IMG/VR virus record: IMGVR_UViG_3300030372_004173
Coordinates: 1 to 49,318 of that record
Source: a virus
Taxonomy: Duplodnaviria > Caudoviricetes
Length of the DNA: 49,318 bases
Reading direction: 5' to 3' (one strand)
The notes beneath the pieces are model-generated. The model was not told where the DNA came from, did no database searches, and saw only the letters and a program-made list of their open reading frames with translations. The translations under genes and the position numbers were made by a program. Each line of letters begins with the position of its first letter. Position 1 is the first letter of the stretch. This document shows, piece after piece, positions 7,542-43,624 of this stretch.

Positions 7542-7543
7542 TT

Positions 7544-23966: not shown

Positions 23967-24556
23967 TCCCTGCGATTCTAAAACACGTCCAATCTCTGGG
24001 CTATCGTATTTTCGATGGTGGCCACGCCTATAATCTGAACATTATTGGTATTCGAAACAGCAAAAACGTAAACTCGTTCAACGATTTTCTTTGTTGTGTG
24101 TATCGAGAAACAGAAGATGGCGCTTGGACCGTAAAATACTGGCCAGCAACAACTGATCCGGGGAAGTTTTGTCTTGAAAACCCTGAAGTCTACGGAACAT
24201 CGGCAGGAACGGCAATCATCGTCCCAGGGCAGTACCGTGGTGTTTACAAACTCGATCTCCACCGAGGTAAATACGAAGCGCTCTGCCAACGGAACGGAAA
24301 GATCAAAGTCTATAGAGACGGAAACCGAGATGATGTCCTCGACATGGACCCAGACACGATCCAAGAGGGCTTTTTCGGCTGTAATATCCACAAAGCTGGC
24401 GCAAACTCCACTCAAGTAGATAAGTGGTCTGCCGGGTGCCAGGTCTTTGCCCGAAGCAGAGATTTTGATGAGCTAATCGCGCTTTGCCATAAGCAAATTG
24501 AACATCATCCCACCTGGGCACCTTCTTTCACCTACACCCTCATCACGGAGTGGTAG
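23963..24556 (+). CDS. Putative endolysin with His/Cys (L,D-transpeptidase-like) catalytic motif
   Basis: TTDPG, GQY and GCNIH-x12-SAGCQV motifs; lies in the lysis region. Confidence 0.65.
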   Translation: MIPAILKHVQSLGYRIFDGGHAYNLNIIGIRNSKNVNSFNDFLCCVYRETEDGAWTVKYWPATTDPGKFCLENPEVYGTSAGTAIIVPGQYRGVYKLDLHRGKYEALCQRNGKIKVYRDGNRDDVLDMDPDTIQEGFFGCNIHKAGANSTQVDKWSAGCQVFARSRDFDELIALCHKQIEHHPTWAPSFTYTLITEW

Positions 24557-24558
24557 AA

Positions 24559-24777
24559 ATGGAAAAACTAAAAGAACTCTGGGAGAAACTCAACCTTAAA
24601 GTAGCCCTCGTTGGAGGGGTGGTTGTGGTTTCTACTTCCTTGGGCACTTGCCATCTTGTAAAAGATGACGCGCCTGAAGAGTCTCCGATTGAGGAGACTA
24701 CTACGACCGAAGAGGTCGCTCCGGCTGAAGTGCCAGAAGAGGTTCCGGCTACGCCAGAAACTCCAGAAGAAGAGTAA
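24559..24777 (+). CDS. Small membrane/secreted protein with acidic tail (possible lipoprotein or spanin-like)
   Basis: Hydrophobic VALVGGVVVVSTSLGTC followed by a Glu/Pro/Thr-rich tail; GGAG SD. Confidence 0.55.
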   Translation: MEKLKELWEKLNLKVALVGGVVVVSTSLGTCHLVKDDAPEESPIEETTTTEEVAPAEVPEEVPATPETPEEE

Positions 24778-24779
24778 GA

Positions 24780-24875
24780 GGTGGGGGATAGCGTCGGTGT
24801 TGGGCTTGACGTTAGTCGGGTTGTTTCTGTTTCTACTTCCCGATTTTCTATCCCCCACCCCTTTATTTCTCTTTC
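24780..24875 (+). terminator. Long-range stem with U-rich tail ending the late transcript
   Basis: GGTGGGGGATAG (24780-24791) and CTATCCCCCACC (24848-24859) form a perfect 12-bp inverted repeat, followed by CTTTATTTCTCTTT at the convergence point. Confidence 0.5.
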
Positions 24876-24974
24876 TCGGGCTTCCAACCCATTTTTCTTT
24901 TAGTGCCATAGACATAGGCGTCTGCCCTGTCTTTGGACATCTTCTTTTTCTTTGCTTGATTCCTGAGCCGGTCT

Positions 24975-26333
24975 TCAACCGACTTCAGAATCTCCTCGCT
25001 CGGTGCCATCGTTAATCTCCAAAGGGTGGCCTGGGGTTCTTTTAATTTCTACATAACTCCAAGAACTCCGCTTCCGTCCTCTAGGCTTGATGGTCGACAT
25101 TACGACAACCTGGCAGGGGGACTTCTCCAAGACCTCTAAAGTCTTGCCCAAAGTGAGTGGATCCCACATCCGGTCATCCACTACAATCAAATCGCCAGAA
25201 AACGCTATCCCTGCGGCGATTGCAGCGAGAAGACGAGCCTCCGTGCTTCCAGACAGCGCGGTGTGCTCCTCCCCATCTCTGGTAAGTCCGATGTTTATGG
25301 CGCCGCCGGAAGCATCGAACAAAAGGGTGTCTCCCTTGGGCAAGAACTTACCTACAGATTTACAGAATTTGTCAGCTACTTCGTCGAGCATATCGTGCAT
25401 GACTTGGATGACTGCATTCTTTAAAGCCTTAAGAGAAGAAGACAAATCAGAAGCTCGTACCTCCCCATTCTTGGCTAGTGAAGCAACTTTCGTCATTCTA
25501 CGGTGTAGAAGAGTTTCTCCGATCTCTCCGAGCAAGTCCTCAGTCGGCGGAATGCGTTGGATGGCATCCTTGCCCCCGAGTTGCTTGGTCAAGTGCGAAA
25601 GCACATGCCCTGCTTGGAGCATCGGGTCTGCTTTGTAGTCAAGGTAGATCACCTTTAGTAGATCCCGAAGCATGGCCCGTTGTAGGGTGTTCCAGACTCC
25701 TCCAAGCTCGTCATCTCCGACAAACCGGACTGTGCCCATAGACTCTAAGGCGATCTTACTCGCTTTTACCTGGGCACTCTGATCACGTTGAAGAGATCCT
25801 ATTTTCGTTAGAAGATCTGTAAGGCTGACTGGCCGGTCAAGGGGGCACACGAGGACCAGCGTTTCGTGTAGTTCCTTGGGCAAAAGGTCCATCAGGTCTG
25901 CCGCTGTGATGTCCTTACAGAGCACTTCCCAGAAAAACTTCACTTTGGTTTCGGTGCTCCCCGACATTACAGCGTGTAGTTCTGCGATTGATAATGCACT
26001 TTGACCTTCGTTTGCTCCCGAAGACTTAGGCCTTTTCCCGCGCTCAAGAACCCACCTTCGGATGCTTCCATTATCAAAACGGGCAACAGCCACAGCTTCA
26101 TTTTGTGAAGGGGGAATTAGAGCAGACAGAAGCTTCCCGTCTTTGATGGGCTTGTCTCGGTACAAAAGACCATAAGCACTTCCCGTTCGGGCAAGCTGTA
26201 GGGCTTCTGCGATAGCGCTTTTTCCAGACTCGTTGTTACCGATTAGAAGGGTGTGTTTACCGATGTTTACGGTGTAGTCCCCACCATCTGGGCTCTTGAT
26301 GTTTGTTTGAATCTGAGTGACAAAGTTGCTCAT
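24975..26333 (-). CDS. ABC/SMC-like (Rad50/SbcC-type) ATPase
   Basis: Walker A GNNESGKS near the N-terminus; signature-like LSGSTE and Walker B LIVVDD near the C-terminus; helical middle. Start placed at MSNF (ATGA overlap). Confidence 0.7.
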   Translation of the reverse strand: MSNFVTQIQTNIKSPDGGDYTVNIGKHTLLIGNNESGKSAIAEALQLARTGSAYGLLYRDKPIKDGKLLSALIPPSQNEAVAVARFDNGSIRRWVLERGKRPKSSGANEGQSALSIAELHAVMSGSTETKVKFFWEVLCKDITAADLMDLLPKELHETLVLVCPLDRPVSLTDLLTKIGSLQRDQSAQVKASKIALESMGTVRFVGDDELGGVWNTLQRAMLRDLLKVIYLDYKADPMLQAGHVLSHLTKQLGGKDAIQRIPPTEDLLGEIGETLLHRRMTKVASLAKNGEVRASDLSSSLKALKNAVIQVMHDMLDEVADKFCKSVGKFLPKGDTLLFDASGGAINIGLTRDGEEHTALSGSTEARLLAAIAAGIAFSGDLIVVDDRMWDPLTLGKTLEVLEKSPCQVVVMSTIKPRGRKRSSWSYVEIKRTPGHPLEINDGTERGDSEVG

Positions 26334-26575
26334 TGGGACTCTCCGCAAAATTCTTGGTGGACCAAAGCTAGTGCTGCGCCATTCATTCGAGAAGGCGTAG
26401 TCTTACCCATCTTCCAACGACGTAGGCTTTGTACGCTTGGATTAGCTCCTGCAAGATGTTTTCCCATCTCGACCGCGATCTTTTCATAAGAGAGGCCAAT
26501 TGCCCCAAGGTCGTACAGTAATTTACCAGGCTCTACTTGAGCCTTTACTCTCGCTTCAATTGTCGGACTACGCAT
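26330..26575 (-). CDS. Small HTH DNA-binding protein
   Basis: GLSYEKIAVEM...SVQSLRRWKMGKTTP (XRE-like HTH); SD AAGGAG before the ATG at 26575. Confidence 0.65.
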   Translation of the reverse strand: MRSPTIEARVKAQVEPGKLLYDLGAIGLSYEKIAVEMGKHLAGANPSVQSLRRWKMGKTTPSRMNGAALALVHQEFCGESQ

Positions 26576-27050
26576 TGTTCTTCTCCTTAAAAGGAAGGTT
26601 AAGTTGAGGGTCTGGATCACAGCGATAGCCTCCTGACCAGTCCTCTTCATCATAGGGATAAACCTGTGTAATTCTTTGGATTTCAGGGGCGTCTCCCCGC
26701 TCTTTGTGTTGGCAGAGGAGAAAAACCGGACGACCGACTCGGATTGCCATTCCAACAATCTGAGCAGTCGCCCGGCCCACGAAAGGGGTTGGAATAACGA
26801 TCATGTCGTAGTAGGGCTTTCTGGTAATCGAGTGCTCCCTCTGGACCACACTCTTTGCCCAAGAATTCCAGTCTCCTCTGTGGTGAACCCGAAAATCTTC
26901 CCTTCCGGGAACGATGTTGATCTTCAAGTCCTTACCCGCACGTTCTCCCCGCGCTTGGATAATCTTTCGGATATTCCCGCAATCCTCCTCGATCTTATCT
27001 TCTGTATCGAAAGAGGGGTGTGCGTAGAAAATGCTCACTTTCTTGCTCAT
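26568..27050 (-). CDS. Hypothetical alpha/beta protein (Rossmann/TIR/NDT-like pattern)
   Basis: SIFYAHP...YDMIVI...VGRAT...AIRVGRPVF. Confidence 0.55.
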   Translation of the reverse strand: MSKKVSIFYAHPSFDTEDKIEEDCGNIRKIIQARGERAGKDLKINIVPGREDFRVHHRGDWNSWAKSVVQREHSITRKPYYDMIVIPTPFVGRATAQIVGMAIRVGRPVFLLCQHKERGDAPEIQRITQVYPYDEEDWSGGYRCDPDPQLNLPFKEKNNA

Positions 27051-27118
27051 TTCTTTTTCCTCGCTTTTTTCCGCATCTCACGGCATTTTTCACAATCACA
27101 AAAGACAGGACGTCTCAT
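27047..27118 (-). CDS. 23-aa Cys/basic micro-ORF
   Basis: MRRPVFCDCEKCREMRKKARKKK, with ATGA overlaps on both sides. Confidence 0.5.
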   Translation of the reverse strand: MRRPVFCDCEKCREMRKKARKKK

Positions 27119-29601
27119 ACTTCGCTCCAACGATTTCCGATGTCGGCTTCTGCCGTATAGTCGAGAAGGGGGTTCTTCTTCCGTCGTCGATTCATTACGC
27201 CCTCTAAAATCTTAGCCGCCTCTTCCGCCTTATCTTCGGGCACCTCAAGGTAAAGCGCGTCGTGGCCATGGTTGATCAGCCATTCGACTGGAATAGTCTT
27301 TCCAGTAGGGTCGATGGCTTCTGTAGAAAACCATGGACGTTTTCCATAGATAAGCTCGATCATCCCCTCGTTTACTATGACAGCCCCCCCTGACTGGATG
27401 GGGTGATTGACAAGCTCGTTGATCTTATCCTCGTTTCGAAAGTACCGACGCCGGTCCCAGAGAGAATCTCCGATGAAACCCTCTCGCCTGTATCTCCCCT
27501 CGATCATTCGCCACCACTTTGGGATTTCAGGATCGGCTTTCTTTAGGCCATGGACAACCTGGCGCACGTCCTCAACTGTAAGGTGGGCATAGAGGAGGTT
27601 GCCTTGGTCATCCTCAACTGAACAAATCTGTTCGTGGATTCTCTTAGTAGAAGCTGCGTACTGCCACGCGTATCGAGTGTTCTTAGTAATATCTCGCGTA
27701 GCTTTAAAAGTGCCCTTCCCCTTTTCTCTCCTTTCTTTGGGCGCTCCTTCCAAGCTCCAAATTCCCTTACCGTACACAACTTCCATTGTTTCGTTGTGGG
27801 GATCGAGACCCTCTCGAATGACGCGCAAAGAGTGTTTAGCCTGGGCCTCTTCTACAATTAGCCTCAACTCAAGCTGGTCCATATCCGCACCGATAAGAAC
27901 GCAACCTTCTCGGGCAACGTAGATATCACGGAGGGTGTAAGGAATGTTCTGGGCATTTGGGTTGCTGGAAGAGTACCGTCCTGTCGCGGGTAGACGATTG
28001 TACGAAGGGTGGATTCTTGTAATCTGCTTCTCGATTAAAGGACGAACGTAAGTGCCCAGAAGCTTTGATACTTTTCGATAAGACCTCACAGATCTTAGAA
28101 ACTCAACTTTCTCTTCAGAAAGGCCGTAGTGGACAATCATCGTCCGGAGAGTTTCATCGTCTGTAGAAGGGTCTCCTGTTTTCTCAGAGTAGTGATGGGG
28201 GGACAGGTTCCATTCTTTAAAAAGAAGCTGTGCCATCTGGCGTGTGCTTTGGGGATTAAAGCTTTCCCCAGCAATCTCCTTGCAGGCTTTTAGTTGTTTC
28301 TTGGCCTCGAGGTCTAGCCGGAACAAGTGTTCCTGAGCACGCTCCTGATCTACTTCAATGCCATTACGCTGCATCGTAGTGCCCAGGTGTTGTAAGGTGT
28401 GTTCACGAGGCAACAGGTGCATCTGGCTTCGCTTCTTCACATCTTGGGCAAGAGGCTTTGCAATCCTCGCAGTAACACAAACATCTTTCCCGCAGTAAAT
28501 GTGGAGTTCTTCGTCCGTCTTCGCCTCAACTGCGGTATGGTCTGCTTTCCAAGCTTCTGGGTTATCAGTATAAAAGGAACCCACGAAACCAAGATTATGG
28601 GGAAGTTCGTTGTCTGCTAAGAGATGGAGTAGGATGGTGTCACAGGATAGATTGGGAGTGATCCCTGTCCATTGCTCCATGACGAGTCGATCATATTGCC
28701 CTGCATTGTGTCCCAGGACAGGGATTCCCGGCTCCTGGAAGAAGGTTCGGAATATCTTCTTCAGCGCAGCTTGCTGTTCTGGGGACGCAAGAGGTCTGCC
28801 AACGATGCTTTCGATCTCGACAACGAGAGCCTCGTCCTCCGTCCCTAAGCCGACACAGCGGACGTTTGCAGTAAGCGGATCAATACCGTCAGTCTCAAGG
28901 TCATAGGCAACGAACTTCCCCTCTTCCTGCCACTTCTTCAAATAAGCAGAAACCACTTCGGGCTCATTGGTCCGAGTTATTTTAGGCTCCGGCCAGTTTA
29001 ATTTAGAGTCAAAATATCTCAGTGCCTTCCTCAAATCGTGGAAGAAAACTTCTCGGTATGCTGGCTGACGCATGACCCAAGCAGGGTGCATCGTGTATCC
29101 AACCTTTAAAGTTATGTTTGGATCCCAGGGAGCAGGTAGTTCTTCACACCCACCTCGGATCTTCATTACAGATACGTCTTTCTGTCGGATCGCTCGGGCC
29201 GCTTCCTTGCCCAGGCAGATAATCTTATGGATTCCTGTGGCTTGGAGTTCCCGGTACAGTCGACCCCGACAAGCCTCGGCGGGTTTAAGGGCTCGTTCCT
29301 CTTCACTCTTCCCTTTGTTCCTCCTGGATATCTGAATGTTAGTGGCTTCCAAATCATTCTTGGGAGGACGGCAGCAAATCGCATTCGTCAGGTGACATGA
29401 AAATCTCTTGAGGTCCAAGCGGTCGAGCGCTCGCTGAAGCTCCACACCCCCTGGGCCTACAAAAGGGCGCCCCTCTACAGTCTCATGTATTCCAGGAAAG
29501 TCTCCAATAATGATCACTTGATCATTTGAGTGAATCTCTGGACCTACAGGATCACCAGTTCCGCTGTGTCGCAGCGGACATTTTGAACAAAAGGTAGACA
29601 T
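27115..29601 (-). CDS. polA: Family A DNA polymerase with N-terminal family-4 uracil-DNA-glycosylase-like domain and 3'-5' exonuclease
   Basis: UDG part: CSKC, GDFPG..E...GRPFVG, TNAICCRPP, HPA. Exonuclease: YDLET, HNAGQYD, YCGKD. Polymerase: TGRYSSSNPNAQNIP, DMDQLELR, RDITKNTRY, NHPIQS, HDAL. Confidence 0.93.
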   Translation of the reverse strand: MSTFCSKCPLRHSGTGDPVGPEIHSNDQVIIIGDFPGIHETVEGRPFVGPGGVELQRALDRLDLKRFSCHLTNAICCRPPKNDLEATNIQISRRNKGKSEEERALKPAEACRGRLYRELQATGIHKIICLGKEAARAIRQKDVSVMKIRGGCEELPAPWDPNITLKVGYTMHPAWVMRQPAYREVFFHDLRKALRYFDSKLNWPEPKITRTNEPEVVSAYLKKWQEEGKFVAYDLETDGIDPLTANVRCVGLGTEDEALVVEIESIVGRPLASPEQQAALKKIFRTFFQEPGIPVLGHNAGQYDRLVMEQWTGITPNLSCDTILLHLLADNELPHNLGFVGSFYTDNPEAWKADHTAVEAKTDEELHIYCGKDVCVTARIAKPLAQDVKKRSQMHLLPREHTLQHLGTTMQRNGIEVDQERAQEHLFRLDLEAKKQLKACKEIAGESFNPQSTRQMAQLLFKEWNLSPHHYSEKTGDPSTDDETLRTMIVHYGLSEEKVEFLRSVRSYRKVSKLLGTYVRPLIEKQITRIHPSYNRLPATGRYSSSNPNAQNIPYTLRDIYVAREGCVLIGADMDQLELRLIVEEAQAKHSLRVIREGLDPHNETMEVVYGKGIWSLEGAPKERREKGKGTFKATRDITKNTRYAWQYAASTKRIHEQICSVEDDQGNLLYAHLTVEDVRQVVHGLKKADPEIPKWWRMIEGRYRREGFIGDSLWDRRRYFRNEDKINELVNHPIQSGGAVIVNEGMIELIYGKRPWFSTEAIDPTGKTIPVEWLINHGHDALYLEVPEDKAEEAAKILEGVMNRRRKKNPLLDYTAEADIGNRWSEV

Positions 29602-29611
29602 GGTGTTGGGC

Positions 29612-29865
29612 TAAAAAGTGGAGACGGCGGGGGCTGGTACAAAATCCACCGGGCGGATTCCCATTATGGTTTGAGTCCCACCGTCTCCGGGAAAGGGAGG
29701 GCCGCTACCCAAGTTTACTGAACACCCAAATTAATTATTAATTGGAGGGCAGCGACCCATAAAATTAAGGCATCTATTTGACCACGGACATGCCTTCCTG
29801 CTCCGCCGTACTCGCACTAAAAGGACCAACCCAGAAAGAAATCCTCCTCTGTGCGCAAGTCAGTA
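29612..29865 (-). ncRNA. Array of four structured RNA stem-loops between ssb and polA
   Basis: Stems at 29620-29688, 29699-29758, 29767-29796 and 29810-29860. Plus-strand mismatches become G-U pairs on the minus strand. Confidence 0.55.
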
Positions 29866-30396
29866 TTAGTCAAGGAGGTAATCAAATCCCTCGTCGTCAC
29901 TGACGGGAGATTCAGGTAGCGCAGCGCCAGCCCCGTTGGGCGTGGGTGCGGTTTCTACTTTAGGCGCCTCAGCCTTAATAGTAGCTCCTTTGACCTGGTC
30001 GTACTGGAACTTCTGCATAAAGCGGTACTCGGGATAACTACCCTCAGTGGGTTGTCCGTTCTGTCCCATAGTGGGGGCCGTATACTTGAAGTGTACTTTC
30101 TTGTTTACAAGCTTGTGGAAGGGAAACTTCACACGAGAAGTAAGCTTGCTCTCATCCACACCGGCAGCGACCAAGAATCCCATGATAAAAGGAACAGCTT
30201 TGTCTACAAGAGAAAAGCTCTCTCTGTGACGAATGCCATCCGTAGCCATGTATACGTAGAGGCGGTTCGACTCTTCGTAGTGTTTAAACTCCAGGATGGT
30301 AGCTTCGTGTAATCCGCTAGTCAGGTAGCCAATACCACTCCCACCCGCTGGGGTCTTGCCAGTAAAATCCAACTCAATGACAACATCGTTGCTCAT
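29866..30396 (-). CDS. Single-stranded DNA-binding protein (DUF669-like)
   Basis: OB-fold-like N-terminus (GLHEATI), acidic aromatic tail DDEGFDYLLD; follows the Sak4-like gene. Confidence 0.65.
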   Translation of the reverse strand: MSNDVVIELDFTGKTPAGGSGIGYLTSGLHEATILEFKHYEESNRLYVYMATDGIRHRESFSLVDKAVPFIMGFLVAAGVDESKLTSRVKFPFHKLVNKKVHFKYTAPTMGQNGQPTEGSYPEYRFMQKFQYDQVKGATIKAEAPKVETAPTPNGAGAALPESPVSDDEGFDYLLD

Positions 30397-30447
30397 TTTC
30401 TATTCTCCTTGCCCATCTGGGCACTGTTATTCACACACATTGTGAGG

Positions 30448-30510
30448 GGGTTGGGGCCGGAGGAGAGTGAAGAGAAAAGGACAAGAAATCTCCCACTCTT
30501 CCCCCAACCC
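30448..30510 (-). ncRNA. Candidate anti-RBS small RNA hairpin
   Basis: Stems GGGUUGGGG/CCCCAACCC and AGAGUGGGAGA/UCUCUUCACUCU. The apical loop UUUCUUGUCCUUU is the exact complement of the leader AAAGGACAAGAAA (43371-43383). Confidence 0.55.
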
Positions 30511-30511
30511 A

Positions 30512-31468
30512 CTAAACGAATAATCCATCTTCTTCTGCGGGCATTGAAAAAGCTCTCAATGCTTCTACTTCTGTGTAGTGCCGGAGGATGGCACGGTGCA
30601 GTCCGTCTTGGAGTGCCCAGCGTAGGTGTTCAAGACGCTTCTTGTCTTTAAGCTGCGCTGACACTTTCTGGAGTACCTCGGGCCAGTCTTCAATGCCCTG
30701 TTCCAGAATCTTGTCAGATACTTTCTGGGCGACATCACCGATCCACTCCAAGCCTTTGGGATATGCAATCTGGTATCCTGCTGCCCGGAGTCCTTCTGCA
30801 ATGTTCATGGGAGACATGCCTGGGAATACAGACAATCGATCTCCGGACATATAGTCTGGCTGGGGGCGGAAACAAAGCTGGTACTTCCACGGCGCAGCGG
30901 TAGGCTCATACATTGCTCGGCCAATCACGTCGACCATGCCACTAAACTTTTCTGGAAGCTGACCGGGCAGTGAAGGACCACCGCGAACGAACTTACCGCT
31001 GCTTTGACGTGGCGGCTGCTCATGGCAGTTAAAGATTACGACGATCCCCATCGCTGTAGCGGCACGGGCTGAATCCCGGCAGGCGAGAACATCGCGGGTA
31101 AGAGCAGACCACATACCAGCACGGCCTTTGGTAGATTCATAGGCGTTGATGGTGGTCTCTACCATAAGAGAGAAGTCGTCGATAACAATAGAAGGCGGGC
31201 ACTTCTTAGGATCTGAAATCGCATCATTGATGACTTGGGTTGCCTCGGGCACAGTCATGGCCTTAGCAACATTCATACCCTCGATCCCTAAGAATCTCTG
31301 GGCTGAGAGAAGACCGGAGGGGTCTCCGATGAAAAGCCCACAGGCTCCCGCCGCTGCTGACGCGACAGTCTTTCCTGCTTTACTCGGGCCGTAGAGGCAG
31401 ATGAATACGCCCCCAGAAGGCGGACGGCCTCCGCCATTGGAGCCATTAGCTCCAGCTTTACTAGACAT
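30512..31468 (-). CDS. Sak4/AAA_24-like recombination ATPase
   Basis: LYGPSKAGKT, SIVIDDFS, FNCHE, GPSLPGQ...VDVIG motifs; adjacent to the SSB and nuclease genes. Confidence 0.75.
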   Translation of the reverse strand: MSSKAGANGSNGGGRPPSGGVFICLYGPSKAGKTVASAAAGACGLFIGDPSGLLSAQRFLGIEGMNVAKAMTVPEATQVINDAISDPKKCPPSIVIDDFSLMVETTINAYESTKGRAGMWSALTRDVLACRDSARAATAMGIVVIFNCHEQPPRQSSGKFVRGGPSLPGQLPEKFSGMVDVIGRAMYEPTAAPWKYQLCFRPQPDYMSGDRLSVFPGMSPMNIAEGLRAAGYQIAYPKGLEWIGDVAQKVSDKILEQGIEDWPEVLQKVSAQLKDKKRLEHLRWALQDGLHRAILRHYTEVEALRAFSMPAEEDGLFV

Positions 31469-31505
31469 TGATTTCTCCAAACACACACTTGTTTATTGAG
31501 GGAAG

Positions 31506-31697
31506 CTAACACACTGGTTTTTTCTGAGTCAATTGAATGACGTCGATAATTTGATCTATGATTTCTAATTTACTGATCTCTTCAGGAGTCTTCTCGTCCG
31601 GACCCTGTTTGATCATGTCTTCCAATTCCCTACCAAAGAAATGGAGGGCTTCGAGAACAGTAGGTATTTCATCTTCTGTAAGTTTGAGGAGGATCAT
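31506..31697 (-). CDS. Hypothetical protein
   Basis: 63 aa, TAATG-coupled to the nuclease gene. Confidence 0.55.
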   Translation of the reverse strand: MILLKLTEDEIPTVLEALHFFGRELEDMIKQGPDEKTPEEISKLEIIDQIIDVIQLTQKKPVC

Positions 31698-32506
31698 TAC
31701 TCACCCCCAAAGCGGCACAGGTTGTAGGCATCACACTGTCCGTACTTGCCGTAGCAGACTTGGTTGGTCAGGGTCATCGGCCACTCTCGGGGCTCTTTTC
31801 CCTGCCAGGTTTCTACTCTCCGTTCGGCTTCAACAAGGGACGGCACAAAGTCTTTGAGAGCAGCAGGTGCAGGCTCAATGGGCCGACGATCAAAGTCATA
31901 TTTCGGAGACGCTTTGATGCGATTGAGGATGACCCCCGCAAATCTCTCACCGTATTTCGCGTGTCCAAACATTTGATAGCCAATGAACTGGCCGTCCAAA
32001 GTGTATTGACGTAGAGTCTTTGAGACAATGCGGTATGCGGTTTTATGATCGACGATCCAGACCTTGCCGTCCGGGTCTTCCACAATGAGATCCGCCCTCT
32101 GAGTGTATAGATATTTCCCAGATACTTTCGCCCGTAATTCGTATTCGACCTCAAGAACTCTCCAAGATTCGTGGAGCCAATTGTTGATGTAGGCAGTGCA
32201 GACATCAATGGCTAAAGGAACAAGCTTTTCCCAAAGTGGAGAAGAGTTTGATTCTTCTCGGGCCAAAGCTTGAATGGCATCCTCATAGGTGTACCACTGT
32301 TCCGTGTTCCCACCCAACTGCTTTTCTTTCATACGTTGATAGTGGTGGGCCAGCCCTACATGAATCAGAGAACCACGAGCGAGGGGCTCAGAAATCTGTC
32401 TCTCCACTAAACCCGAGTGCTCCCAGGCATACAACCTTGGGCACCTCATTACGCTTTCTATCCGATGCCACCCCCTCTCGGATGGCCCTGAATTAATGAG
32501 CTTCAT
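31697..32506 (-). CDS. PD-(D/E)XK Cas4/RecB-like exonuclease
   Basis: CPR...GSLIH, E.E, RADLIV..., IVDHKT, Q...Y, and C-terminal C...C.....C (Fe-S staple pattern). Confidence 0.85.
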   Translation of the reverse strand: MKLINSGPSERGWHRIESVMRCPRLYAWEHSGLVERQISEPLARGSLIHVGLAHHYQRMKEKQLGGNTEQWYTYEDAIQALAREESNSSPLWEKLVPLAIDVCTAYINNWLHESWRVLEVEYELRAKVSGKYLYTQRADLIVEDPDGKVWIVDHKTAYRIVSKTLRQYTLDGQFIGYQMFGHAKYGERFAGVILNRIKASPKYDFDRRPIEPAPAALKDFVPSLVEAERRVETWQGKEPREWPMTLTNQVCYGKYGQCDAYNLCRFGGE

Positions 32507-32524
32507 TGTTTTGTCCTTTCTCCT

Positions 32525-32552
32525 ACTATAGCTTGTCTGTCATATGATGCAA
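32525..32552 (-). promoter_or_regulatory. Putative sigma70-type promoter
   Basis: Minus strand TTGCAT-N16-TATAGT just upstream of the nuclease RBS. Confidence 0.4.
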
Positions 32553-32562
32553 CACTAATATG

Positions 32563-34176
32563 TCAGGTGGGTGTCAACTGAGCTACACGAGCGAGCAAAG
32601 ATGCCATACCTTCTGACGATTCATCTACGCCCCCAAGCACTCCCTCGATCTCATCGGCAGCAGCGTCTTCTGCAATCTCTCCAACGTGTGGCAGCTTCTC
32701 CAACAGCAGGTCCGACACATGCTCATCGGCTGTGTTCCGAGCAACAACGTAGGAGACTAGCACTGGTCTCTTCTGCCCGAGTCGAGAGAAGCGGCCCTCC
32801 CACTGGATTATCTTATCTGGAGTCCAGGGAAGCATAGTGATGAGTGCGAGATCAGTGTCTTGTAAGTCTACACTCTCACCCCAGGCGTCACCCGTTCCGA
32901 TGAGGAGGCACGGTCCAGGATGGGCCATGTACTCGTGCCTGATTCGGTCACGTTCAGTCGGGTCAACGCCTCCGTGTGCTGCCCAAACAGAGCAGCCTTT
33001 TATATTCTGGACTGCCTTGTCGAGTCGGGAAGACAAGCGGTCACAGTCATTACGTCGGGCTGTGAAGACAACTACCTTCTGGTCGGAAGATAAAGCTTCA
33101 AGTACCCGGTCCTGGATGTAGTCATGCTTCCGAGAAGCAGCTTCCATAAGCAGGGTTTCAAAGTAGGATTCTCCTCCCTCCTTCTGTGCCCGTTTGATGT
33201 CCCGCTTCATCGCCGCTGGCTTGTTCTGTTCGGCGTGGGACAGGCGTACAACCTGCCTTCTTTTCTTGGGCAAATGGCGGTTGACCTCATCCCGCTTAAC
33301 CCTTACCTTCACATACGAAAGGCGCTCTTTCAACTCGGGGGCATTGGTCACACCATTGTATTGGTAGCCATACCCGTTGTGCATTCCCTGGCAGTACCGC
33401 ATTCCAAACTGATGGAAAGTGCCCCACTGCCACGGCTCTACCAAATCTAGTTGAGTCCAGAGATCTTTCACCCTTCCAGGGATTGGGGTCGCAGTCATTC
33501 CAAGCTTTCGGTGGGCTCTCCCCGCCACTTTGCGAGCCGAGTCTAAGCTGTTCCCGAGTCCCTCAAATTGTATAGAACCGTCACGGCGAACAATCGCCTT
33601 GGTATGTTTAGGGCGGCGTAGCCAATGGATCTCATCCCAGACAACCGATGTGGGCTCAAGTGCGACCAGAGCATCTGCCCAGTACTTCAAAGTCTCCCAG
33701 GCTGTAATGTAGAGGCAGGTTCGGTCGCTCTTGAGTCCTTTCGGTGGTGTCTGCCCGGTAAGGAGAACAGGCTTCAAGGTTGTGTATTGCTCACACTGTT
33801 CGGCCCAAGTCCCCCGAGCGGCAGCCTTCGTAACCACGAGCTTGATACCTGGGGAGGAGACGAGGAAGACAAGACCGACGAGTGTCTTCCCGGCACCTGG
33901 TGGGGCCCACACATGGGTTCCTGGAATAGCCAAGGACTTAGCAAGCATCCTCTTCTGGTGCTGCTTCATAAAGTCCGTAAGTCCTTCTCTCAAAAGAGGA
34001 TTCCGTAAAGAAGCTTCGACTTGTGTAAGGTCAATGATGGGCGGCTCAGTAATTAAGCCTAAAACTGAATGGGCATTCAGTGGAATACGATACCCCCCTC
34101 CGTGCTTGTTGGGCCAGACTCCTGGGATCTCCAAGCCGAGCGAGGGCACCGAACGTCTGTGAACGAACGGTTTCAT
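32563..34176 (-). CDS. SNF2-like superfamily 2 helicase
   Basis: PGAGKT, WDEIH, MTATP, GESVDLQ and QWEGRFSRLGQ motifs. Confidence 0.88.
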   Translation of the reverse strand: MKPFVHRRSVPSLGLEIPGVWPNKHGGGYRIPLNAHSVLGLITEPPIIDLTQVEASLRNPLLREGLTDFMKQHQKRMLAKSLAIPGTHVWAPPGAGKTLVGLVFLVSSPGIKLVVTKAAARGTWAEQCEQYTTLKPVLLTGQTPPKGLKSDRTCLYITAWETLKYWADALVALEPTSVVWDEIHWLRRPKHTKAIVRRDGSIQFEGLGNSLDSARKVAGRAHRKLGMTATPIPGRVKDLWTQLDLVEPWQWGTFHQFGMRYCQGMHNGYGYQYNGVTNAPELKERLSYVKVRVKRDEVNRHLPKKRRQVVRLSHAEQNKPAAMKRDIKRAQKEGGESYFETLLMEAASRKHDYIQDRVLEALSSDQKVVVFTARRNDCDRLSSRLDKAVQNIKGCSVWAAHGGVDPTERDRIRHEYMAHPGPCLLIGTGDAWGESVDLQDTDLALITMLPWTPDKIIQWEGRFSRLGQKRPVLVSYVVARNTADEHVSDLLLEKLPHVGEIAEDAAADEIEGVLGGVDESSEGMASLLARVAQLTPT

Positions 34177-34187
34177 GTTGTGTCCTT

Positions 34188-36434
34188 TTATTTTTCTGGG
34201 CTAATGCTAATTACATTCTCTGATTTTGTTTCTACGCTTGGCGATGGGAGTCCGAGGTAGCAGTAAATTCCCTGGCCTCCGAGTACGATTCGCTTGACTG
34301 CGACTGCTCCCATCTGCTGGAAGCAAAGCCTAAGATTCATTTCCTGGTAGACATCCCTCCGACCGTGCCGCTCACACCAAGTCTTGTAAGAACCGTAGAG
34401 TAGTTCGCATGAGACTGCGCGGTGGGTTGCTGCGCTTGTCACCTGGGCAAACTCGGGACCGGCTGGGTAGTCGGTGATGAGAGAGGCAGGGCCATACTGA
34501 AGAACCAATCTTACAAAGTGTTCGATGGAAGAACGGGACGCGGCTTGCAGGAGGAGACGCGCCTTGGTCTCGTGTGGCTTGGCGATGAGAGAGTAGTCCA
34601 CCTTCAGGGCATGGAGCGCATGAGCAAAGGCTGAGACTTCCTCGGCAAAGTCTTTCGTGTACTTGCCCAGTGATGGGTCGAAGCATTTGGAAAGCATCTT
34701 TCTATATTCTGGGTCTACCTTCTCAGGCACCAGGACGGTGAAGCGACGGTCGTCTTCCTCCACCATGAGGGGTCGTCTCTCATTAGACGTAAGCCACCAG
34801 GTCATACGATTCTGTACTTCTGTCCGGGCTGCGTAGGGGGCGCGGCAGGGTACGCGATCGTCAGTGATGTAGGCTTTGAGCGCTGCTGTGACGTCTCCGT
34901 CCTTACCTCCGATTCCTACTTCGTCTGCCAGCACCAAGAGTTTAGTGACGTAGCTCGCGTTGAAGGAGTCCTTCAGTGCCCGATTGGATACGATGGCTGA
35001 GTTCCTTTCCCCAATAATGTGGGCCAGGATTCTGCCGTACATAGATTTACCGATTCCCTGTTGGGGAGATAGGCAAAGTACGGCGACCATTGAACGGCGT
35101 TCAGGGCGTTGGACTACGGAAGCACTCCAGTGCAGCAGCCAGTTCATCACGCTGGCGTCTCCGGAAGAGAGAACCTCCAACATCTTTTCTATTCTGGGCC
35201 AAGCTCCTTTACTGGGCTCGACCTCGGGCTTCGCATAGAGGTTTAGCATTGGGCCAATGTGGTTGGGCACGATGGCTCCTCGGGATGAGTCGCATTCAAA
35301 TCCATAAACCTGGCGGGACAAGATGTGATCGACCAGGGCCTGGACATGCTTGCCCGACAGGTCTCCACTCAGTTTACCTACGAGGTGGTGGACGATTGTC
35401 TCTTTGCGGAGTGGCGTCTGAATCTGCCAAGCTCCTGTCTCCCGCCGGTAGAAGACACCCTGCGGGAAGTTGAAGCACAGGTTGGTCTCCACATACTGGA
35501 TCATAGAATCTGGGATCTCTCCGAGGAGTTCCTTTCGTCCTGCGGCTGACCGAGTGGACGCCTTCTTTTTCTTCTCCTTCTTGTTGCCCAACCAGAATTG
35601 TTTCTGCTCGTGGTCGTGATTGTCGCTCGTGCATTGAAGGAACACGCGTCCGTCTTTGCACACTCGGAGGAAAGCACTTCCAAAAGATGCGCCCCCTTGG
35701 AATGGGCAAGCGCATTTGTATTTATCTGGGCCCTCTTCAATTAGGGCAGCGACGTCTGCTGTCTCCCCGGAAGAAGAGATTACAAGAACCGTTTCTGGAG
35801 TAAGGACAAGCCCGCCTTCAGCGTCGTCTTTCTGTTCAGTCATCAATGAATCCACACACAAGGGAGGCAAAGATAACTCAAGATAGCTTTCGTAGGAAGC
35901 GCCAGTTCGTCTCACAGGGAGAGCATAATGGCGGGCATAGTCTTCGCACTGAGTATCAACGCCGTCTGTGTAGCCTATCAAAGATAGGACTGCTTCTCTC
36001 GTAGACTTGACTTCTTTTATTTTAAGAGGACGGGACAGGAAGATGACCACTCGATAGCGCGGAGCCTCATCCGTGTGAGACCAGGTTGTATAAACTCCGT
36101 TGGCTATGCCCAGAGTATTGAGGTGTGTAGCCATGCGGGCGGCAGACCAGTCGGGGTCATCGTAGTCGAACACCACAGCACTAATCTTGGCTACGTTCTT
36201 GTTCGCTCGTGTCTTCCCTTCTGGGTAGAGGGCTGGGCTCCAACAGTCTAGTTTCTTTTTATTGAAAGCAGCAGCACGCCATGGGGGCTGGGCGAACAGG
36301 CGGCGCAGCACTGCCTCTTCCTTGACAACCACACTGGACGGACGTACAGTAGTGAAGCCGCCCTTGAACATAGAAATGTGCCAAGGCAAAATACCTTCAG
36401 CAAGTGAAGCTTTCTTCTTATCCATTAGCTTCAT
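34188..36434 (-). CDS. Primase-helicase (AEP-like primase plus SF3/DUF5906-type helicase)
   Basis: FDYDD, YTTWSH, RYRVVIFLSRP primase motifs; Cys/His cluster; QGIGKS, LADEV, TSN, DRRF helicase motifs. Start placed at the ATG after AAGGAG (36434). Confidence 0.85.
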   Translation of the reverse strand: MKLMDKKKASLAEGILPWHISMFKGGFTTVRPSSVVVKEEAVLRRLFAQPPWRAAAFNKKKLDCWSPALYPEGKTRANKNVAKISAVVFDYDDPDWSAARMATHLNTLGIANGVYTTWSHTDEAPRYRVVIFLSRPLKIKEVKSTREAVLSLIGYTDGVDTQCEDYARHYALPVRRTGASYESYLELSLPPLCVDSLMTEQKDDAEGGLVLTPETVLVISSSGETADVAALIEEGPDKYKCACPFQGGASFGSAFLRVCKDGRVFLQCTSDNHDHEQKQFWLGNKKEKKKKASTRSAAGRKELLGEIPDSMIQYVETNLCFNFPQGVFYRRETGAWQIQTPLRKETIVHHLVGKLSGDLSGKHVQALVDHILSRQVYGFECDSSRGAIVPNHIGPMLNLYAKPEVEPSKGAWPRIEKMLEVLSSGDASVMNWLLHWSASVVQRPERRSMVAVLCLSPQQGIGKSMYGRILAHIIGERNSAIVSNRALKDSFNASYVTKLLVLADEVGIGGKDGDVTAALKAYITDDRVPCRAPYAARTEVQNRMTWWLTSNERRPLMVEEDDRRFTVLVPEKVDPEYRKMLSKCFDPSLGKYTKDFAEEVSAFAHALHALKVDYSLIAKPHETKARLLLQAASRSSIEHFVRLVLQYGPASLITDYPAGPEFAQVTSAATHRAVSCELLYGSYKTWCERHGRRDVYQEMNLRLCFQQMGAVAVKRIVLGGQGIYCYLGLPSPSVETKSENVISISPEK

Positions 36435-36483
36435 TCTCCTTGGACCCCGGAGTGAATGTGACCTCGCTCCGGGGTTCTTTGTC

Positions 36484-36867
36484 TTAAGTGATTGATGAGT
36501 TTGACTGGGATTCTCCCGCGAACCATACGAGAGGGCGATCCCCATCCCGATAGACCTGACGCCTCGTGAATCCGTACTGTCTGAGTAGCGCACTCAGAGC
36601 ATTCTTGTAGCGCTTAGGTCGAATAATCATAGCAGGGCCGACGCCCTCTATGAGTTCATCTAGTGTGAACCCTATCTCATCGAATCGTTTTGCATAAGAC
36701 AGAATGGCTTCTGTTGGGGGGTAGCCGGGCAATGCGTCCTGGGTAGACTCCAGAAACTTAACGTGGATTCTGAGGGCATTGACGGCTGCTTCTAAGCGAG
36801 AGGTGTGGGGGCCAAGTTCCCTGGCCCGTTCGGTAAGCTCTGCCAGTTCTTCTTTAAGGCTGGACAT
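36484..36867 (-). CDS. Hypothetical protein: coiled coil plus winged-helix-like C-terminus
   Basis: LSALLRQYGFTRRQ...RPLVW; SD AGGAG. Confidence 0.6.
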   Translation of the reverse strand: MSSLKEELAELTERARELGPHTSRLEAAVNALRIHVKFLESTQDALPGYPPTEAILSYAKRFDEIGFTLDELIEGVGPAMIIRPKRYKNALSALLRQYGFTRRQVYRDGDRPLVWFAGESQSNSSIT

Positions 36868-37223
36868 ACATTCTCCTAGGTGTTGGGTGAGATTTACTAA
36901 TTATTCTAACCAGTGCTGTCAAGAACAGTATGGTACTTTTACTACCACTACCCCTACATGGTACATAAAAAACATTGAAGAGGATGCAATTGCTCGCCGT
37001 TTTACTAACAATACAACAAGATTACAGGGGGTTAGCTTGTGCATGACCTCACTAACAAGATTCTAAAAAGCTGAGGTTTACGTGTCAACGTCTGAGTTCA
37101 TGCTTTAGATAACGTGCGATGTTAGTCGGCGTAGTTACTATCTAATAAGTGGGGTCATGCAGTTGGCGGCTGGATAGCGTGCTTTCCTATGACAGCCACC
37201 GAAAAAAACAAACAACCTGACGG

Positions 37224-37309
37224 GCTCGGGGGGTGACTCCCCCGGAGGGGAGCCAGATATTTATCCGCACATCACAAGGAAAAACATGCACAATAAATAC
37301 CACCCGAGC
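37224..37309 (-). ncRNA. Candidate three-way-junction small RNA with anti-SD loop, followed by U-tract
   Basis: Closing stem GCUCGGG/CCCGAGC; arm 1 with loop GUUUUUCCUUGUG; arm 2 GGCUCCCC-UCCG-GGGGAGUC; then GUUGUUUGUUUUUUU (37202-37216). Confidence 0.5.
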
Positions 37310-37316
37310 ATTCCCA

Positions 37317-38168
37317 TCAGCTTGCAGCCATAGCTTCCAAGATTGCGAGAGAAGCTGTAGATTCTACCTCTTCAACACGGTCCCGGAGAGAAGTCATGGT
37401 CTTACCCAGAATCTTCTCGTAGTCCTGGACGAGAGAGTCAAGCTCGCCTGCCTCACGCTCTCGTGTCTGGAGTGCTCGCTTACCGAGATCTCCCTCTTCC
37501 AAGTCTGCCTCAAGCTGGCCGAGTTTACTCTCCACCTGGGCAACGAGCGCCACGCAGATCGCGTCAAGAGTATCGGTGTCCGTGGTTGTTTGAATACAAG
37601 ACACCGTATTCTTGTGGAATGCGAGCGAGATAACCCCTGCGATTTCCTTCCACCGGGCCTTACTGGTTTTTGGAATCCAGTAGAATCCTCCGCGTGGGCG
37701 CATCGAAATGCCTCCGAGTTTCCGAGCAGCATTCGATAGAACCGTACCGAGCACCGCACCGGACACCAGCTTTTTCTGAACATTGAACTCAGACTGGAGC
37801 ATGTCTTGCACATCGTGCCCGAATCTTACGGAAGTGTATACGTCGTGGTTTTCTACATAGTGGAGACCACCAGAAGAATCGAATGTTACTTTGAGGGCTT
37901 CGGTGTACCGAGTCTTCCCGTCGTGCAAGTCCTGACGTCCACAGACTTTGTAGCCGCTTGTCCCGCGTACGGTTTTGATGACTACATCCTGCTTACTGAA
38001 AACCCTGTTGAGGGCTCGCAATAAAGCTTGCGTGTCGTTCTTGGGAGAAGGGATAAGCTCGGCAAGTCCCAAGTCCTCGAATCCAACTTTTAGAATCTGG
38101 CGGTCGGAGTTATCCGAGAGTGACCAGTGGGTCAGGATTCCATTGTATTTGATAGTTTTCTCAATCAT
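37317..38168 (-). CDS. Conserved phage protein (DUF6744/DUF3150-like)
   Basis: GILTHWSL...PSP....AL.RAL and GISMRPRGGFYWIP motifs with a C-terminal coiled coil; next to the VWA/AAA genes. Confidence 0.55.
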   Translation of the reverse strand: MIEKTIKYNGILTHWSLSDNSDRQILKVGFEDLGLAELIPSPKNDTQALLRALNRVFSKQDVVIKTVRGTSGYKVCGRQDLHDGKTRYTEALKVTFDSSGGLHYVENHDVYTSVRFGHDVQDMLQSEFNVQKKLVSGAVLGTVLSNAARKLGGISMRPRGGFYWIPKTSKARWKEIAGVISLAFHKNTVSCIQTTTDTDTLDAICVALVAQVESKLGQLEADLEEGDLGKRALQTREREAGELDSLVQDYEKILGKTMTSLRDRVEEVESTASLAILEAMAAS

Positions 38169-38206
38169 TGTCTTGTCCTTTGTGAATGATGCTTGATTGC
38201 ACCAGA

Positions 38207-38234
38207 CAACCTACCGACTTTCGCCGATAGGTTG
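38207..38234 (-). repeat. Intercistronic hairpin, copy 1
   Basis: CAACCUAUCGGC-GAAA-GUCGGUAGGUUG on the minus strand. Confidence 0.65.
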
Positions 38235-38243
38235 CAGGGAGAA

Positions 38244-39533
38244 TCAGACGCGTTTCTCCACAAGGACAGTCTTCATCCAGTCAGGCACACCACGCTTCCC
38301 GCAATGGTTCCCAACGAGGGCAACCATAGCTGGGATTTTACAATCTGAACGACGGGGCCATGGGGTGTAGCCGTCTGTCAGAACGATGGTGCAATGCACT
38401 ATTGGATTTTCCTTTTCTACTCGGGCAATGAGTGGACGCATGTCCGTACCTCCCCGACCAGTAATCTTGACGCTGTGACCGGAGGAACTCCTACCGGACC
38501 AGCCAGTATCCGTGTCGCCCGTGACTACGAAACAAGAGCCACCTGCCGCGCGTGCGATCCCGTCAATCTCAGAAAGACAGACATTCAGATCGTCGTTTGA
38601 CATACTGCCAGAAGTATCCACGACCACGCCGATGCGTAGCTTGGGATGGAATACTGCGGGAATCAGCACGTTCCCCCGGACAGAATGCTGCCGCCGTGAA
38701 CGCTTGCGGAAAGTGTAGTCGGATGCGCCGACTGAGATTTCCATAGAATTCTTAGCGAAACGCCGCACGATTTCCTGCCAGGGAATTGTGGGTGGAGCAA
38801 GTTGCGCTTTGGCCCACAAGACGTCGGCGCTGTTGAGCCCACGTGTTTTAGAAGACTCCTGAATATCTCGGGCAATTTGCCTGCGGATAGACTCGCCTTG
38901 TTTTTCAGTAGTCCCAGGATTCTCGTCAGACGGGGGACCGTCTTCCCAATCCCGTGCGTTCTCGTCGAAACACTGGCCTGGTTTCTTGCCGCTCCCACCG
39001 TCGCCGTCCTCATCGTTATCCATGTGGAGGTAATACCATTCGGTAATCTGATTCTGTGGGAGGGGATTGCCGCCAGGGTCATTCATCTTTTCTGGGAACA
39101 CGCACCAGTCCTGGAGATGCTCGCGGAGGAAAGCATCAGACCCATTGATTTCTGCATCCGCTGCAATGTTCCAGCGCTTGGAACATTTCTCCATTCCGAC
39201 AGGCGGAGAGAACATTTCGAACCGCTCGGGATGTCGACGAATCCAGTGCCAGACTTCATGGATGAAATCTGCAATGAGAGTCTGGACAGAATACTGCTCC
39301 TCGCCAAGACCGAGAATCATTTCCGGGTCAAAGTAGCAGCGACCGTACTTGTCCATTCCCCAGCCTCCACACTCGTGGCGGAGACCGGGAACCGGACGGG
39401 GAATCATCGCATAGATTCCTTGACCGAGAAACGGATACTGTCTGGCAGCGCCCACGCGAATCGTGGCGAAACGAGCCAGGGATTTTTGGATGGTGACGTC
39501 ACTCACCTCGGGCATAGGGATAGAAGGTGTCAT
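38244..39533 (-). CDS. Metallopeptidase-VWA domain protein (DUF2201-like)
   Basis: HEVWH zinc motif, WNIAADAEIN, MIDAS DTSGSM, GRGGTD, LTDG. Confidence 0.85.
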   Translation of the reverse strand: MTPSIPMPEVSDVTIQKSLARFATIRVGAARQYPFLGQGIYAMIPRPVPGLRHECGGWGMDKYGRCYFDPEMILGLGEEQYSVQTLIADFIHEVWHWIRRHPERFEMFSPPVGMEKCSKRWNIAADAEINGSDAFLREHLQDWCVFPEKMNDPGGNPLPQNQITEWYYLHMDNDEDGDGGSGKKPGQCFDENARDWEDGPPSDENPGTTEKQGESIRRQIARDIQESSKTRGLNSADVLWAKAQLAPPTIPWQEIVRRFAKNSMEISVGASDYTFRKRSRRQHSVRGNVLIPAVFHPKLRIGVVVDTSGSMSNDDLNVCLSEIDGIARAAGGSCFVVTGDTDTGWSGRSSSGHSVKITGRGGTDMRPLIARVEKENPIVHCTIVLTDGYTPWPRRSDCKIPAMVALVGNHCGKRGVPDWMKTVLVEKRV

Positions 39534-39535
39534 CT

Positions 39536-40330
39536 TTATTGTCCTTTAGAAATGACGGTGTACTGGGAAGGATACTCGTCTGAACCGAGAAGAAACTGAA
39601 TACGAACCCACACTTCATCGTGTTCGTTCCAGCGGTGTCGCCCGTGTCGATGGCCCCCCATCGTAGGCGCTACTTTTCTATAGGCTTTTACAAACTGGGG
39701 ATATGACCGTTGCCATAAATCCACGGGGGGGAGGGCACACGGAAATAGTCCACAGTCTTTGATTGCTTTGAACCATGGAGTGTTTTCGAATACGAAAACT
39801 TCCGTAGGAATGGGGATTGCGTCAATACAAGAATTGATTCCGATGATTCTCGCAATCTTCCGCTGCCTCAATACTTTCAATCGATTTTGCGCATGACCCT
39901 TACTCATCTGGAGAAAACGTCCCTCGACTACAGACTCTCTCCAGGTTTTATGGCGCCGGTCCTGATTTTTCTGGGATGCCTCCTGAGCGTATGGACGCAA
40001 AGGTACAGGTAGCTGGCCGAGAAGTTGGGACGGAGTAGGCGCCTCAAAATATCCACGCTTTGCACTGAAGGCTTGTTCAACCCAAGGATGGTCCTCTCGG
40101 ATTTGATACCAGTCGGGTCCACGATATTCAGAAGTCTGTCTGTACCAATTCCAGAGAAGCTTTACTTCCCGACACCGGCAACGCTCATCTGGATTGAAAA
40201 CCAGAAGCGCGGATAGCGCGTCCTCGTTTTCTCCCTGATGGTCCAATAATGACAGCCTCCCTTTTGAGGTGAGTCCAATACGATGGTGGCGTCCCATGCA
40301 TTTGACTTTCGCAATTTCTAGAAATTCCAT
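39536..40330 (-). CDS. Hypothetical protein
   Basis: Start placed at MEFL (40330) after the AAGGACAA leader; N-terminal C...H, H...CRC possible metal site. Confidence 0.6.
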   Translation of the reverse strand: MEFLEIAKVKCMGRHHRIGLTSKGRLSLLDHQGENEDALSALLVFNPDERCRCREVKLLWNWYRQTSEYRGPDWYQIREDHPWVEQAFSAKRGYFEAPTPSQLLGQLPVPLRPYAQEASQKNQDRRHKTWRESVVEGRFLQMSKGHAQNRLKVLRQRKIARIIGINSCIDAIPIPTEVFVFENTPWFKAIKDCGLFPCALPPVDLWQRSYPQFVKAYRKVAPTMGGHRHGRHRWNEHDEVWVRIQFLLGSDEYPSQYTVISKGQ

Positions 40331-40404
40331 AGTTTTGTCCTTGTTTTCCCACATGATTGTAGGCCAAAGCCGCCCGCCAAAAGGCGGGAAGCTTGTGTCT
40401 ACAT

Positions 40405-41684: not shown

Positions 41685-41725
41685 TTGTTTTGTCCTTGTT
41701 TATCCGTAGCGGAATGCTAACGGCT

Positions 41726-41755: not shown

Positions 41756-41763
41756 CGTCGTTG

Positions 41764-42386: not shown

Positions 42387-42669
42387 TATTTTGTCCTTTA
42401 CCGTTCATACAACGGGCAAAACCCATAGGAAAACCTGTGAGCTTTTCTCGGTGTAGGAGGGAGGGGGGAGGGGGGTCATTTTAAGATTGTATAAACTCCA
42501 GTGAGAAAAAGGATGGAAACGGAAATAATATCGAATGGAAAGGGAGGTAGCATGATGGACACCTGATAGTCAATGGAAAATGAAAATGGACGCGGTGGAT
42601 GGATAGCGTGGATTGGATAGATTTCTACAGAAATGACAGCCCCGAGGACTTTGAAAAATCCAGACGCAG

Positions 42670-43370: not shown

Positions 43371-43624
43371 TTTCTTGTCCTTTAGTGAGCGTCTGAAAAC
43401 CGCCACCGGACGAATTCCGGTAGCGGATGCCAAACACTCCCCAAAGCCCGAGCGAAAAGACACGCTTTCTGGTCGCGTCCGTTTTCACACCATGCGCGGA
43501 AAATCCACGCGGGCGTCCGCGCTCTCGATTTTCCGCTCGTCAGAAAATCCCCGCGCGAAACGGGCCAGAAACAGCGATGGAAAAGAGCTACCAGGTAGCG
43601 CACGCGCCCCTCGCCCCTCTACTA

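Follow-up and report, generated by a model that had tools for sequence, protein, structure and literature searches.

A conserved phage hairpin whose loop co-evolves with the ribosome-binding sites of early and replication genes

The C4 RNA of phages P1 and P7 has exposed sequences with lineage-specific specificity. C4, sar (P22), OOP and aQ (lambda) all control phage genes by base pairing, each acting on one gene or operon, in lysis-lysogeny control and mostly from the opposite strand (PMC12197685, PMC8201110); known phage antisense RNAs more generally control one gene or act on the host (PMC12197685). In Staphylococcus aureus, RsaE and RNAIII use an unpaired UCC(C) to pair with the Shine-Dalgarno sequences (SDs) of several mRNAs, the flanking bases giving specificity, and the pairing footprint of RsaE over the SD blocks 30S binding (PMC2790875). 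OppZ and CarZ of Vibrio cholerae are autoregulatory small RNAs (sRNAs) derived from 3'UTRs and released by RNase E from the 3' end of an operon (PMC7398697). RNA from downstream in the operon thereby inhibits translation of its own transcript, in a negative feedback. Start-associated sequences (SAS) are known from mycobacteriophages of cluster K and from Microbacterium phages of cluster EF (PMC3203893, PMC7302621, PMC11373665). They are over-conserved asymmetric motifs at the ribosome-binding site (RBS) of many non-structural genes, and four K1 genomes have a single copy that is oppositely oriented and has no tie to a gene start (Pope et al., PMC3203893). The role of SAS was called unknown in 2011, 2020 and 2024 (PMC3203893, PMC7302621, PMC11373665). 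Statements about these papers refer to the portions of each that were available.

We describe a hairpin in a virus record of 49.3 kb that is ~90% complete; the whole stretch analysed (49,318 nt) is called the window in what follows. As with RsaE and RNAIII, its loop is an unpaired C-rich seed facing several SDs, the flanking bases would give specificity, and pairing is kept by compensatory change, with misfits in a few clades that are given below. RsaE and RNAIII are chromosomal, independently transcribed and have host targets (PMC2790875), whereas this hairpin faces the phage's own genes, which have a built-in co-evolving motif. A helicase and a nuclease gene among its targets fit the OppZ and CarZ scheme. 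The hairpin is intercistronic, however, and not at an operon 3' end, has no U-tract terminator, and also reaches a separate early block, while OppZ and CarZ regulate their own operon (PMC7398697). Its target motif shares with SAS the association with the RBSs of a non-structural gene class. The motif is AAGGACA, unlike the GGGATAGGAGCCC-type SAS consensus, and both sequence and phages are unrelated (PMC3203893). SAS have ESAS inverted repeats upstream, of which none is evident on inspection in the leaders of the window, and the available portions of the SAS papers describe the reverse copy neither as a hairpin loop nor as a regulator, whereas here the copy is a loop that co-varies with the motif. 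The phage antisense RNAs have single targets, against up to eight dispersed targets here. Full-text searches, in the portions available and with subscription journals thinly covered, found no account of a hairpin loop in a phage co-varying with an RBS that early genes have in common. Rfam gave no match in the window at E <= 1 (RsaE, RNAIII and C4 included), and in seven relative loci only tRNAs reached the gathering score.

Setting, fold and conservation of the hairpin

The plus strand of the window encodes virion genes and the minus strand an early/replication arm with AAA ATPase, DUF2201, DUF6744, primase-helicase, SNF2-type helicase, PD-(D/E)XK nuclease, Sak4-like protein, family A polymerase and a probable DUF669-like single-stranded DNA-binding protein (SSB). 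A tblastn search of 50,697 phage records with the Sak4 or capsid protein found no cultured relative, and the helicase had only ~26% identity to any of these records. The features around the hairpin are:

30454..30510, minus strand: conserved RNA hairpin of 57 nt and 21 bp, after the Sak4-like stop
30476..30488, minus strand: unpaired 13-nt anti-RBS loop UUUCUUGUCCUUU, the proposed seed, with its UCC core opposite GGA
30512..31468, minus strand: gene for a Sak4-like ssDNA annealing protein (PHROG 124, Pfam AAA_24), upstream neighbour of the hairpin and a non-target
29866..30396, minus strand: 176-aa gene, probable DUF669-like SSB (Atlas feature match 0.94), downstream neighbour of the hairpin
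30432..30439, minus strand: UGUGUG element 3' of the hairpin, with a second copy before Sak4 at 31481-31488
37060..37088, minus strand: candidate promoter of sigma70 type, TTGACA-17-TAGAAT, preceding the replication genes

The 176-aa protein has neither a Pfam nor a PHROG match; the Atlas match is to a cluster with DUF669 in 37% of its members and serves as a lead only.

The preliminary description had the hairpin starting 2 nt after the Sak4-like stop, as a long stem formed by the minus-strand transcript. The hairpin and its long stem are there, but the stem begins one base past the stop, and in the window the fold is not strand-specific, the opposite strand being about equal (-33.6 vs -32.8 kcal/mol). 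The 5' arm is G-rich and the 3' arm C/U-rich, with some G-U pairs, and the fold has z = -2.6 against shuffles. Accessibility of the loop, a check named in that description, held up: all 13 bases are predicted to be unpaired (P at least 0.99) in a 360-nt context. Strands were compared in 24 sequences over a span chosen to be fair to both. The mRNA-sense strand was the better fold in 22 of them, the window being among the two exceptions, and had G-U at 81 of 581 pairs, against 39 of 559 on the opposite strand. G-U tolerance in the loop-leader pairs was dropped as strand evidence, being confounded with the default AGGAG. By the criteria of a short GC stem, a 3-8 nt loop and a U-tract, the hairpin is not an intrinsic terminator, and none follows it.

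The helicase and nuclease genes lie upstream of the hairpin, co-oriented and closely spaced, and are probably co-transcribed with it. The only strong promoter-like site upstream is the sigma70-type site at 37088, which has a counterpart in only 4 of 15 relatives. One metatranscriptome (8% of words) gave three contigs of 172-299 nt on 24500-44400, none of them over the hairpin, which says nothing either way. The preliminary description proposed an sRNA made in the replication phase; neither a discrete RNA nor that timing gains support from these observations.

A Sak4 homologue search yielded 42 loci in viral records, 37 in metagenomes, with some phages common to both, and one in a genome; individual relatives are given below by L numbers. 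A long hairpin with a pyrimidine-rich UCC loop follows Sak4 in 26 of 31 distinct post-Sak4 sequences. It is missing from L033, from L040, which retains the stem without the loop, and from three distant phages (~49% Sak4 identity); L041 likewise has no such loop after Sak4. The outer stem of 11 bp is 89% paired in an alignment of 17 sequences, with two-sided changes at 8 of its 11 pairs, and 27 stem cells are changed on both sides, against 9.2 when shuffled. Co-variation of the outer stem exceeded shuffles on four of five measures and exceeded all slid controls, the latter a comparison biased in favour of the stem, whose structure was taken from the window's fold. L063, with a Sak4 92% identical to that of the window, has had much of the stem replaced and has kept the loop. 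A covariance model found one strong copy per genome among the phages with a Sak4 loop, and no strong second match.

Several other elements were observed nearby. UGUGU(G) occurs within 60 nt of the start in 26 of 28 Sak4 genes and 17 of 21 genes for the 176-aa protein, and in at most 3 of 24 for other genes. The motif thus precedes exactly the two genes that flank the hairpin and could be a second regulatory code, for example SSB autoregulation or a processing site. A second UCC hairpin follows the 176-aa gene at about 29805-29863 (minus strand) and contains GGUUGGUCCUUUU, close to the loop type of the relative L119 described below; it was set aside, as it is not conserved in L063 or L003. A third hairpin follows DUF6744 at about 37250-37300 (minus strand), with the loop UUUCCUUGU, anti ACAAGGAAA. 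It is kept in L063 and was seen in the window's clade only; a terminator-like GC hairpin downstream of it was seen in most relatives. tRNA genes were found in L005 (11681-11753), L011 (11708-11780) and L119 (17684-17756). Those of L005 and L011 come right behind the SSB-like gene, at a place that in the window is structured and has no Rfam match. The family A polymerase (27115-29601, minus strand) has an N-terminal uracil-DNA-glycosylase-like domain, and its annotated start is without an SD and preceded by a long structured leader. A direct repeat with the core CCAGGTTCAACCT at 43659-43691 and 43757-43789 lies where the early and late arms diverge, in the promoter region between them.

Complementarity and co-variation of loop and leaders

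The window has exactly two copies of AAAGGACAAGAAA, one at the loop (plus strand) and the other at 43371-43383 (minus strand), directly before the ATG at 43370. A third-order Markov model predicts 0.006 additional exact copies of the 13-mer. The full complement to the leader of the first early gene was claimed in the preliminary description and is borne out, as are the shorter matches to seven further leaders. Matches were scored with a 17-nt window centred on the loop; the gene starts given for these seven leaders are in brackets:

43371..43383, minus strand: leader of the first early gene (no family, product of 216 aa), complementary at 13/13
42391..42399, minus strand: leader of an 81-aa gene (42386), 9 nt
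41690..41697, minus strand: leader of the AAA ATPase gene (41684), 8 nt
40335..40342, minus strand: leader of a 264-aa gene (40330), 8 nt
39539..39547, minus strand: leader of the DUF2201 metallopeptidase/VWA-like gene (39533), 9 nt
38171..38181, minus strand: leader of the DUF6744 gene (38168), 11 nt
34181..34189, minus strand: leader of the SNF2-type helicase gene (34176), 9 nt, the most consistently co-varying target
32511..32519, minus strand: leader of the PD-(D/E)XK nuclease gene (32506), 9 nt, matching in few relatives

Eight of the ten AAGGACA sites on the minus strand are just before one of these eight target starts; the late genes mostly have AGGAG or GGAG instead. Across six genomes, none of 146 late-strand leaders matches its own loop by at least 8 nt. 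Of the 19 GGA-containing matches of at least 10 nt, which stem from four of seven genomes, 13 fall at ORF starts; for AGGA in general the figure is 454 of 4364 (10%). When the 48 leaders of the window are ranked by duplex energy, the eight targets are inside the top 12, mixed with the SSB-like (third), capsid (seventh), terminase and 160-aa leaders. Many of the loop-leader duplexes have just 8-9 bp and are A/U-rich.

For the comparison among relatives we took 23 representative loops in 17-nt windows, excluding the near-duplicate hairpins of L002, L007 and L016 and anchoring L064 and L083 by hand. All candidate starts of each orthologous gene were scored with all loops, and the window defined which genes made up the target set. 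Target leaders matched their own loop by 6.55 nt and foreign loops by 5.61 nt (p 2e-5, or 0.006 by energy; 19 relatives, window excluded), helicase leaders by 8.33 and 6.15 nt (z 6.0; 15 relatives, window excluded), and the leaders of seven non-target genes by 4.89 and 4.87 (p 0.38; 22 relatives), p values that overstate certainty because related phages and leaders are not independent. Collapsing to 10 clades drawn from the Sak4 tree gave 8.65 vs 6.4 nt for the helicase (permutation p about 1e-5), p 1.4e-4 for the target set and p 0.23 for the non-target genes, values to be taken as guides only, since the tree backbone is unresolved and three clades have one common loop. Co-variation of loop and leader motifs in relatives, the test set in the preliminary description, is thus seen, and the non-target control is flat.

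The base after GGA follows the loop. Among 61 target leaders it is C in 24 of the 31 opposite a loop G (the rest being U in 3 and other bases in 4), and A or G in 26 of the 27 opposite a loop U (A 18, G 8, with C in one); of 57 non-target leaders, 45 have G at that position and one has C. Matched pairs specific to a lineage are GUUUUUCCUUUGU with ACAAAGGAAAAAC in L011 (13 nt), GUUUAUCCUUU with AAAGGATAAAC in L018 (11 nt), UUAGUCCUUUU with AAAAGGACTAA in L032 (11 nt) and UUCUUCUUUCC with GGAAAGAAGAA in L038 (11 nt). Further such pairs occur in L019 and L005 (12 nt each).

The relative L119, on a 57-kb phage-like contig in a 'Proteobacteria bacterium' assembly, was found after these analyses. 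Its loop is UUUGUUGGUCCUUU, whose GG is absent from all other Sak4 loops, and the matching AAAGGACCA is found in seven early/replication leaders, complementary over 9-14 nt and in one case 14/14. Six of these leaders belong to homologues of window targets, and the seventh belongs to the gene that comes first in the arm by position; the nuclease leader, counterpart of the eighth target, has no match. The seven leaders, which were chosen after the matches were seen, match their own loop by 10.9 nt and any of the other 23 loops by at most 7.6 nt. This private GG/CC change confirms the co-variation out of sample. The L119 helicase (5134-7794) has an insertion of ~330 aa with weak Hint and LAGLIDADG matches, probably an intein.

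Some relatives fit poorly. In clades J (L013) and K (L022) the loop is kept and the leaders match by just 4-6 nt, a comparison made on helicase and nuclease leaders only, as no overlapping contigs reach the early regions of these clades; if the model holds, their early leaders should be of the AAAGGACAAG and GAAGGACAAT types. Loop-leader fits are weak in clades I, M and Q. The helicase leader ranks its own loop first or tied first in 11 of 16 phages, and those of L003, L028 and L080 do slightly better with the loops of other phages. L021, L026 and L035 have no match of at least 10 nt in the sequence examined, only matches of 7-9 nt, and the early leaders of L021 fit the window's loop better than their own.

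In L099 (G001), the capsid gene and the next late gene (17270, 18376) have AAAGGAC leaders, which mismatch the U-type loop of that phage; this motif, late in L099, marks targets in G-loop phages. Other pyrimidine-loop hairpins were seen in L115 (G008), ~50-70 nt after the SSB-like gene, and in L089, ~80 nt after DUF6744. They fit their own DUF6744 leader (14 bp, one G-U) or helicase leader (9 nt), and it is possible that the element has relocated in these phages, which are without the Sak4 loop. Both displaced hairpins were picked post hoc and are leads only: one or two leaders fit, the rest do not, and foreign loops do nearly as well.

Function of the hairpin

As judged from the comparison of sequences, the RNA is structured on the mRNA strand and its loop is under selection to complement an RBS class. 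The co-variation, together with the complementarity of the loop and a phage-specific extended RBS motif, makes an antisense RNA likely. We consider it probable that the hairpin pairs over the SD and spacer of the eight early/replication leaders and so blocks translation initiation. The preliminary description had a single seed silencing the early mRNAs as a class. The pairing of one seed with one RBS class stands, on the co-variation and on L119, while repression is what we infer from the position of the pairing over SD and spacer. It had also proposed early shut-off. The early block is indeed among the targets, but the set is not purely early, and since the helicase and nuclease genes are probably in the hairpin's own transcription unit, feedback dosage control fits equally well.

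On the antisense reading, the seed would be presented by the stem, a stable scaffold. Its UCC core would face GGA, and the flanking bases would give specificity, with C after GGA in the window's targets and mostly G in non-targets. Pairing across SD and spacer would occlude the 30S subunit, as with RsaE. The accumulating transcript of the Sak4 region, or a processed piece of it, would reduce translation of the early block in trans. The helicase and nuclease genes, which lie upstream in the probable operon, would be under negative feedback, and Sak4, polymerase and virion genes would be spared.

Co-variation reveals pairing and not its sign, so the hairpin might instead recruit its target mRNAs to the ribosome, a nuclease or a phage protein, as a trans anti-SD adaptor or processing guide. 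The UCCUUU of the loop resembles the 16S 3' tail CCUCCUUUCU of L119's assembly, which may not be the host's, and pairing with that tail is a little weaker for target leaders than for other leaders (-6.2 vs -7.3 kcal/mol). The duplex, however, spans SD and spacer up to the AUG, the same footprint as in the 30S block by RsaE (PMC2790875, in the portion available). A usable AAGGA is still present in the targets, capsid and Sak4, whose products are required in large amounts, do not belong to the motif class, and scans of 22 proteins in Pfam and 44 in PHROGs found no RNA-binding family. We regard recruitment as unlikely.

ANGGA, the CsrA core, is present in all targets, and the plus strand of the window's hairpin is equally stable. 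The leader motif might thus be a binding site, in RNA or DNA, for a CsrA-like protein or a phage repressor, with the opposite strand of the hairpin as a decoy that has the motif in sense orientation. This is very unlikely. The mRNA-sense strand is the one favoured among relatives, with twice the G-U pairs, a protein would have had to change its specificity each time to follow the base-by-base changes of at least five lineages, there is a single copy per genome, and the hairpin is a long way from 24556, where the plus-strand gene block ends. For SAS, the available portion of Pope et al. leaves RNA and protein binding both open (PMC3203893).

That the hairpin between Sak4 and the SSB-like gene serves only in mRNA processing or stability, its pyrimidine loop matching purine RBSs by chance and ancestry, is largely refuted by the co-variation and barely credible. 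A long irregular stem can be an RNase III substrate, as this one potentially is, L040 has the stem without the loop, and J and K have the loop with no matching targets seen; yet purine-rich non-target and late leaders show little or no preference for their own loop, and the private change of L119 recurs in seven leaders. A processing role may coexist with antisense pairing but leaves the co-variation unexplained and so is not sufficient alone.

Implications for phage gene control

The feature is real, conserved and co-evolving, and it is most likely the anti-SD principle of bacterial sRNAs used by a phage on a class of its own genes. The comparison among relatives points to one 13-nt loop that addresses a whole class of the phage's mRNAs, the seed changing base by base together with its targets. 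If antisense repression is true, this would be a protein-free means to time or dose early and replication genes.

A wider reading, which we hold tentatively and as somewhat short of probable, is that phages build an RNA-addressed translational regulon, in which a lineage-specific RBS barcode is read by one hairpin loop. The code would diverge like immunity specificity, and the reader would be movable between intergenic sites. If so, it would be a general layer of phage control and would account for the SAS of actinobacteriophages, a question open since 2011; for these it gives the testable idea that the single reverse copy is the regulator. The natural, partly orthogonal pairs of seed and RBS may also lend themselves to synthetic translation control.
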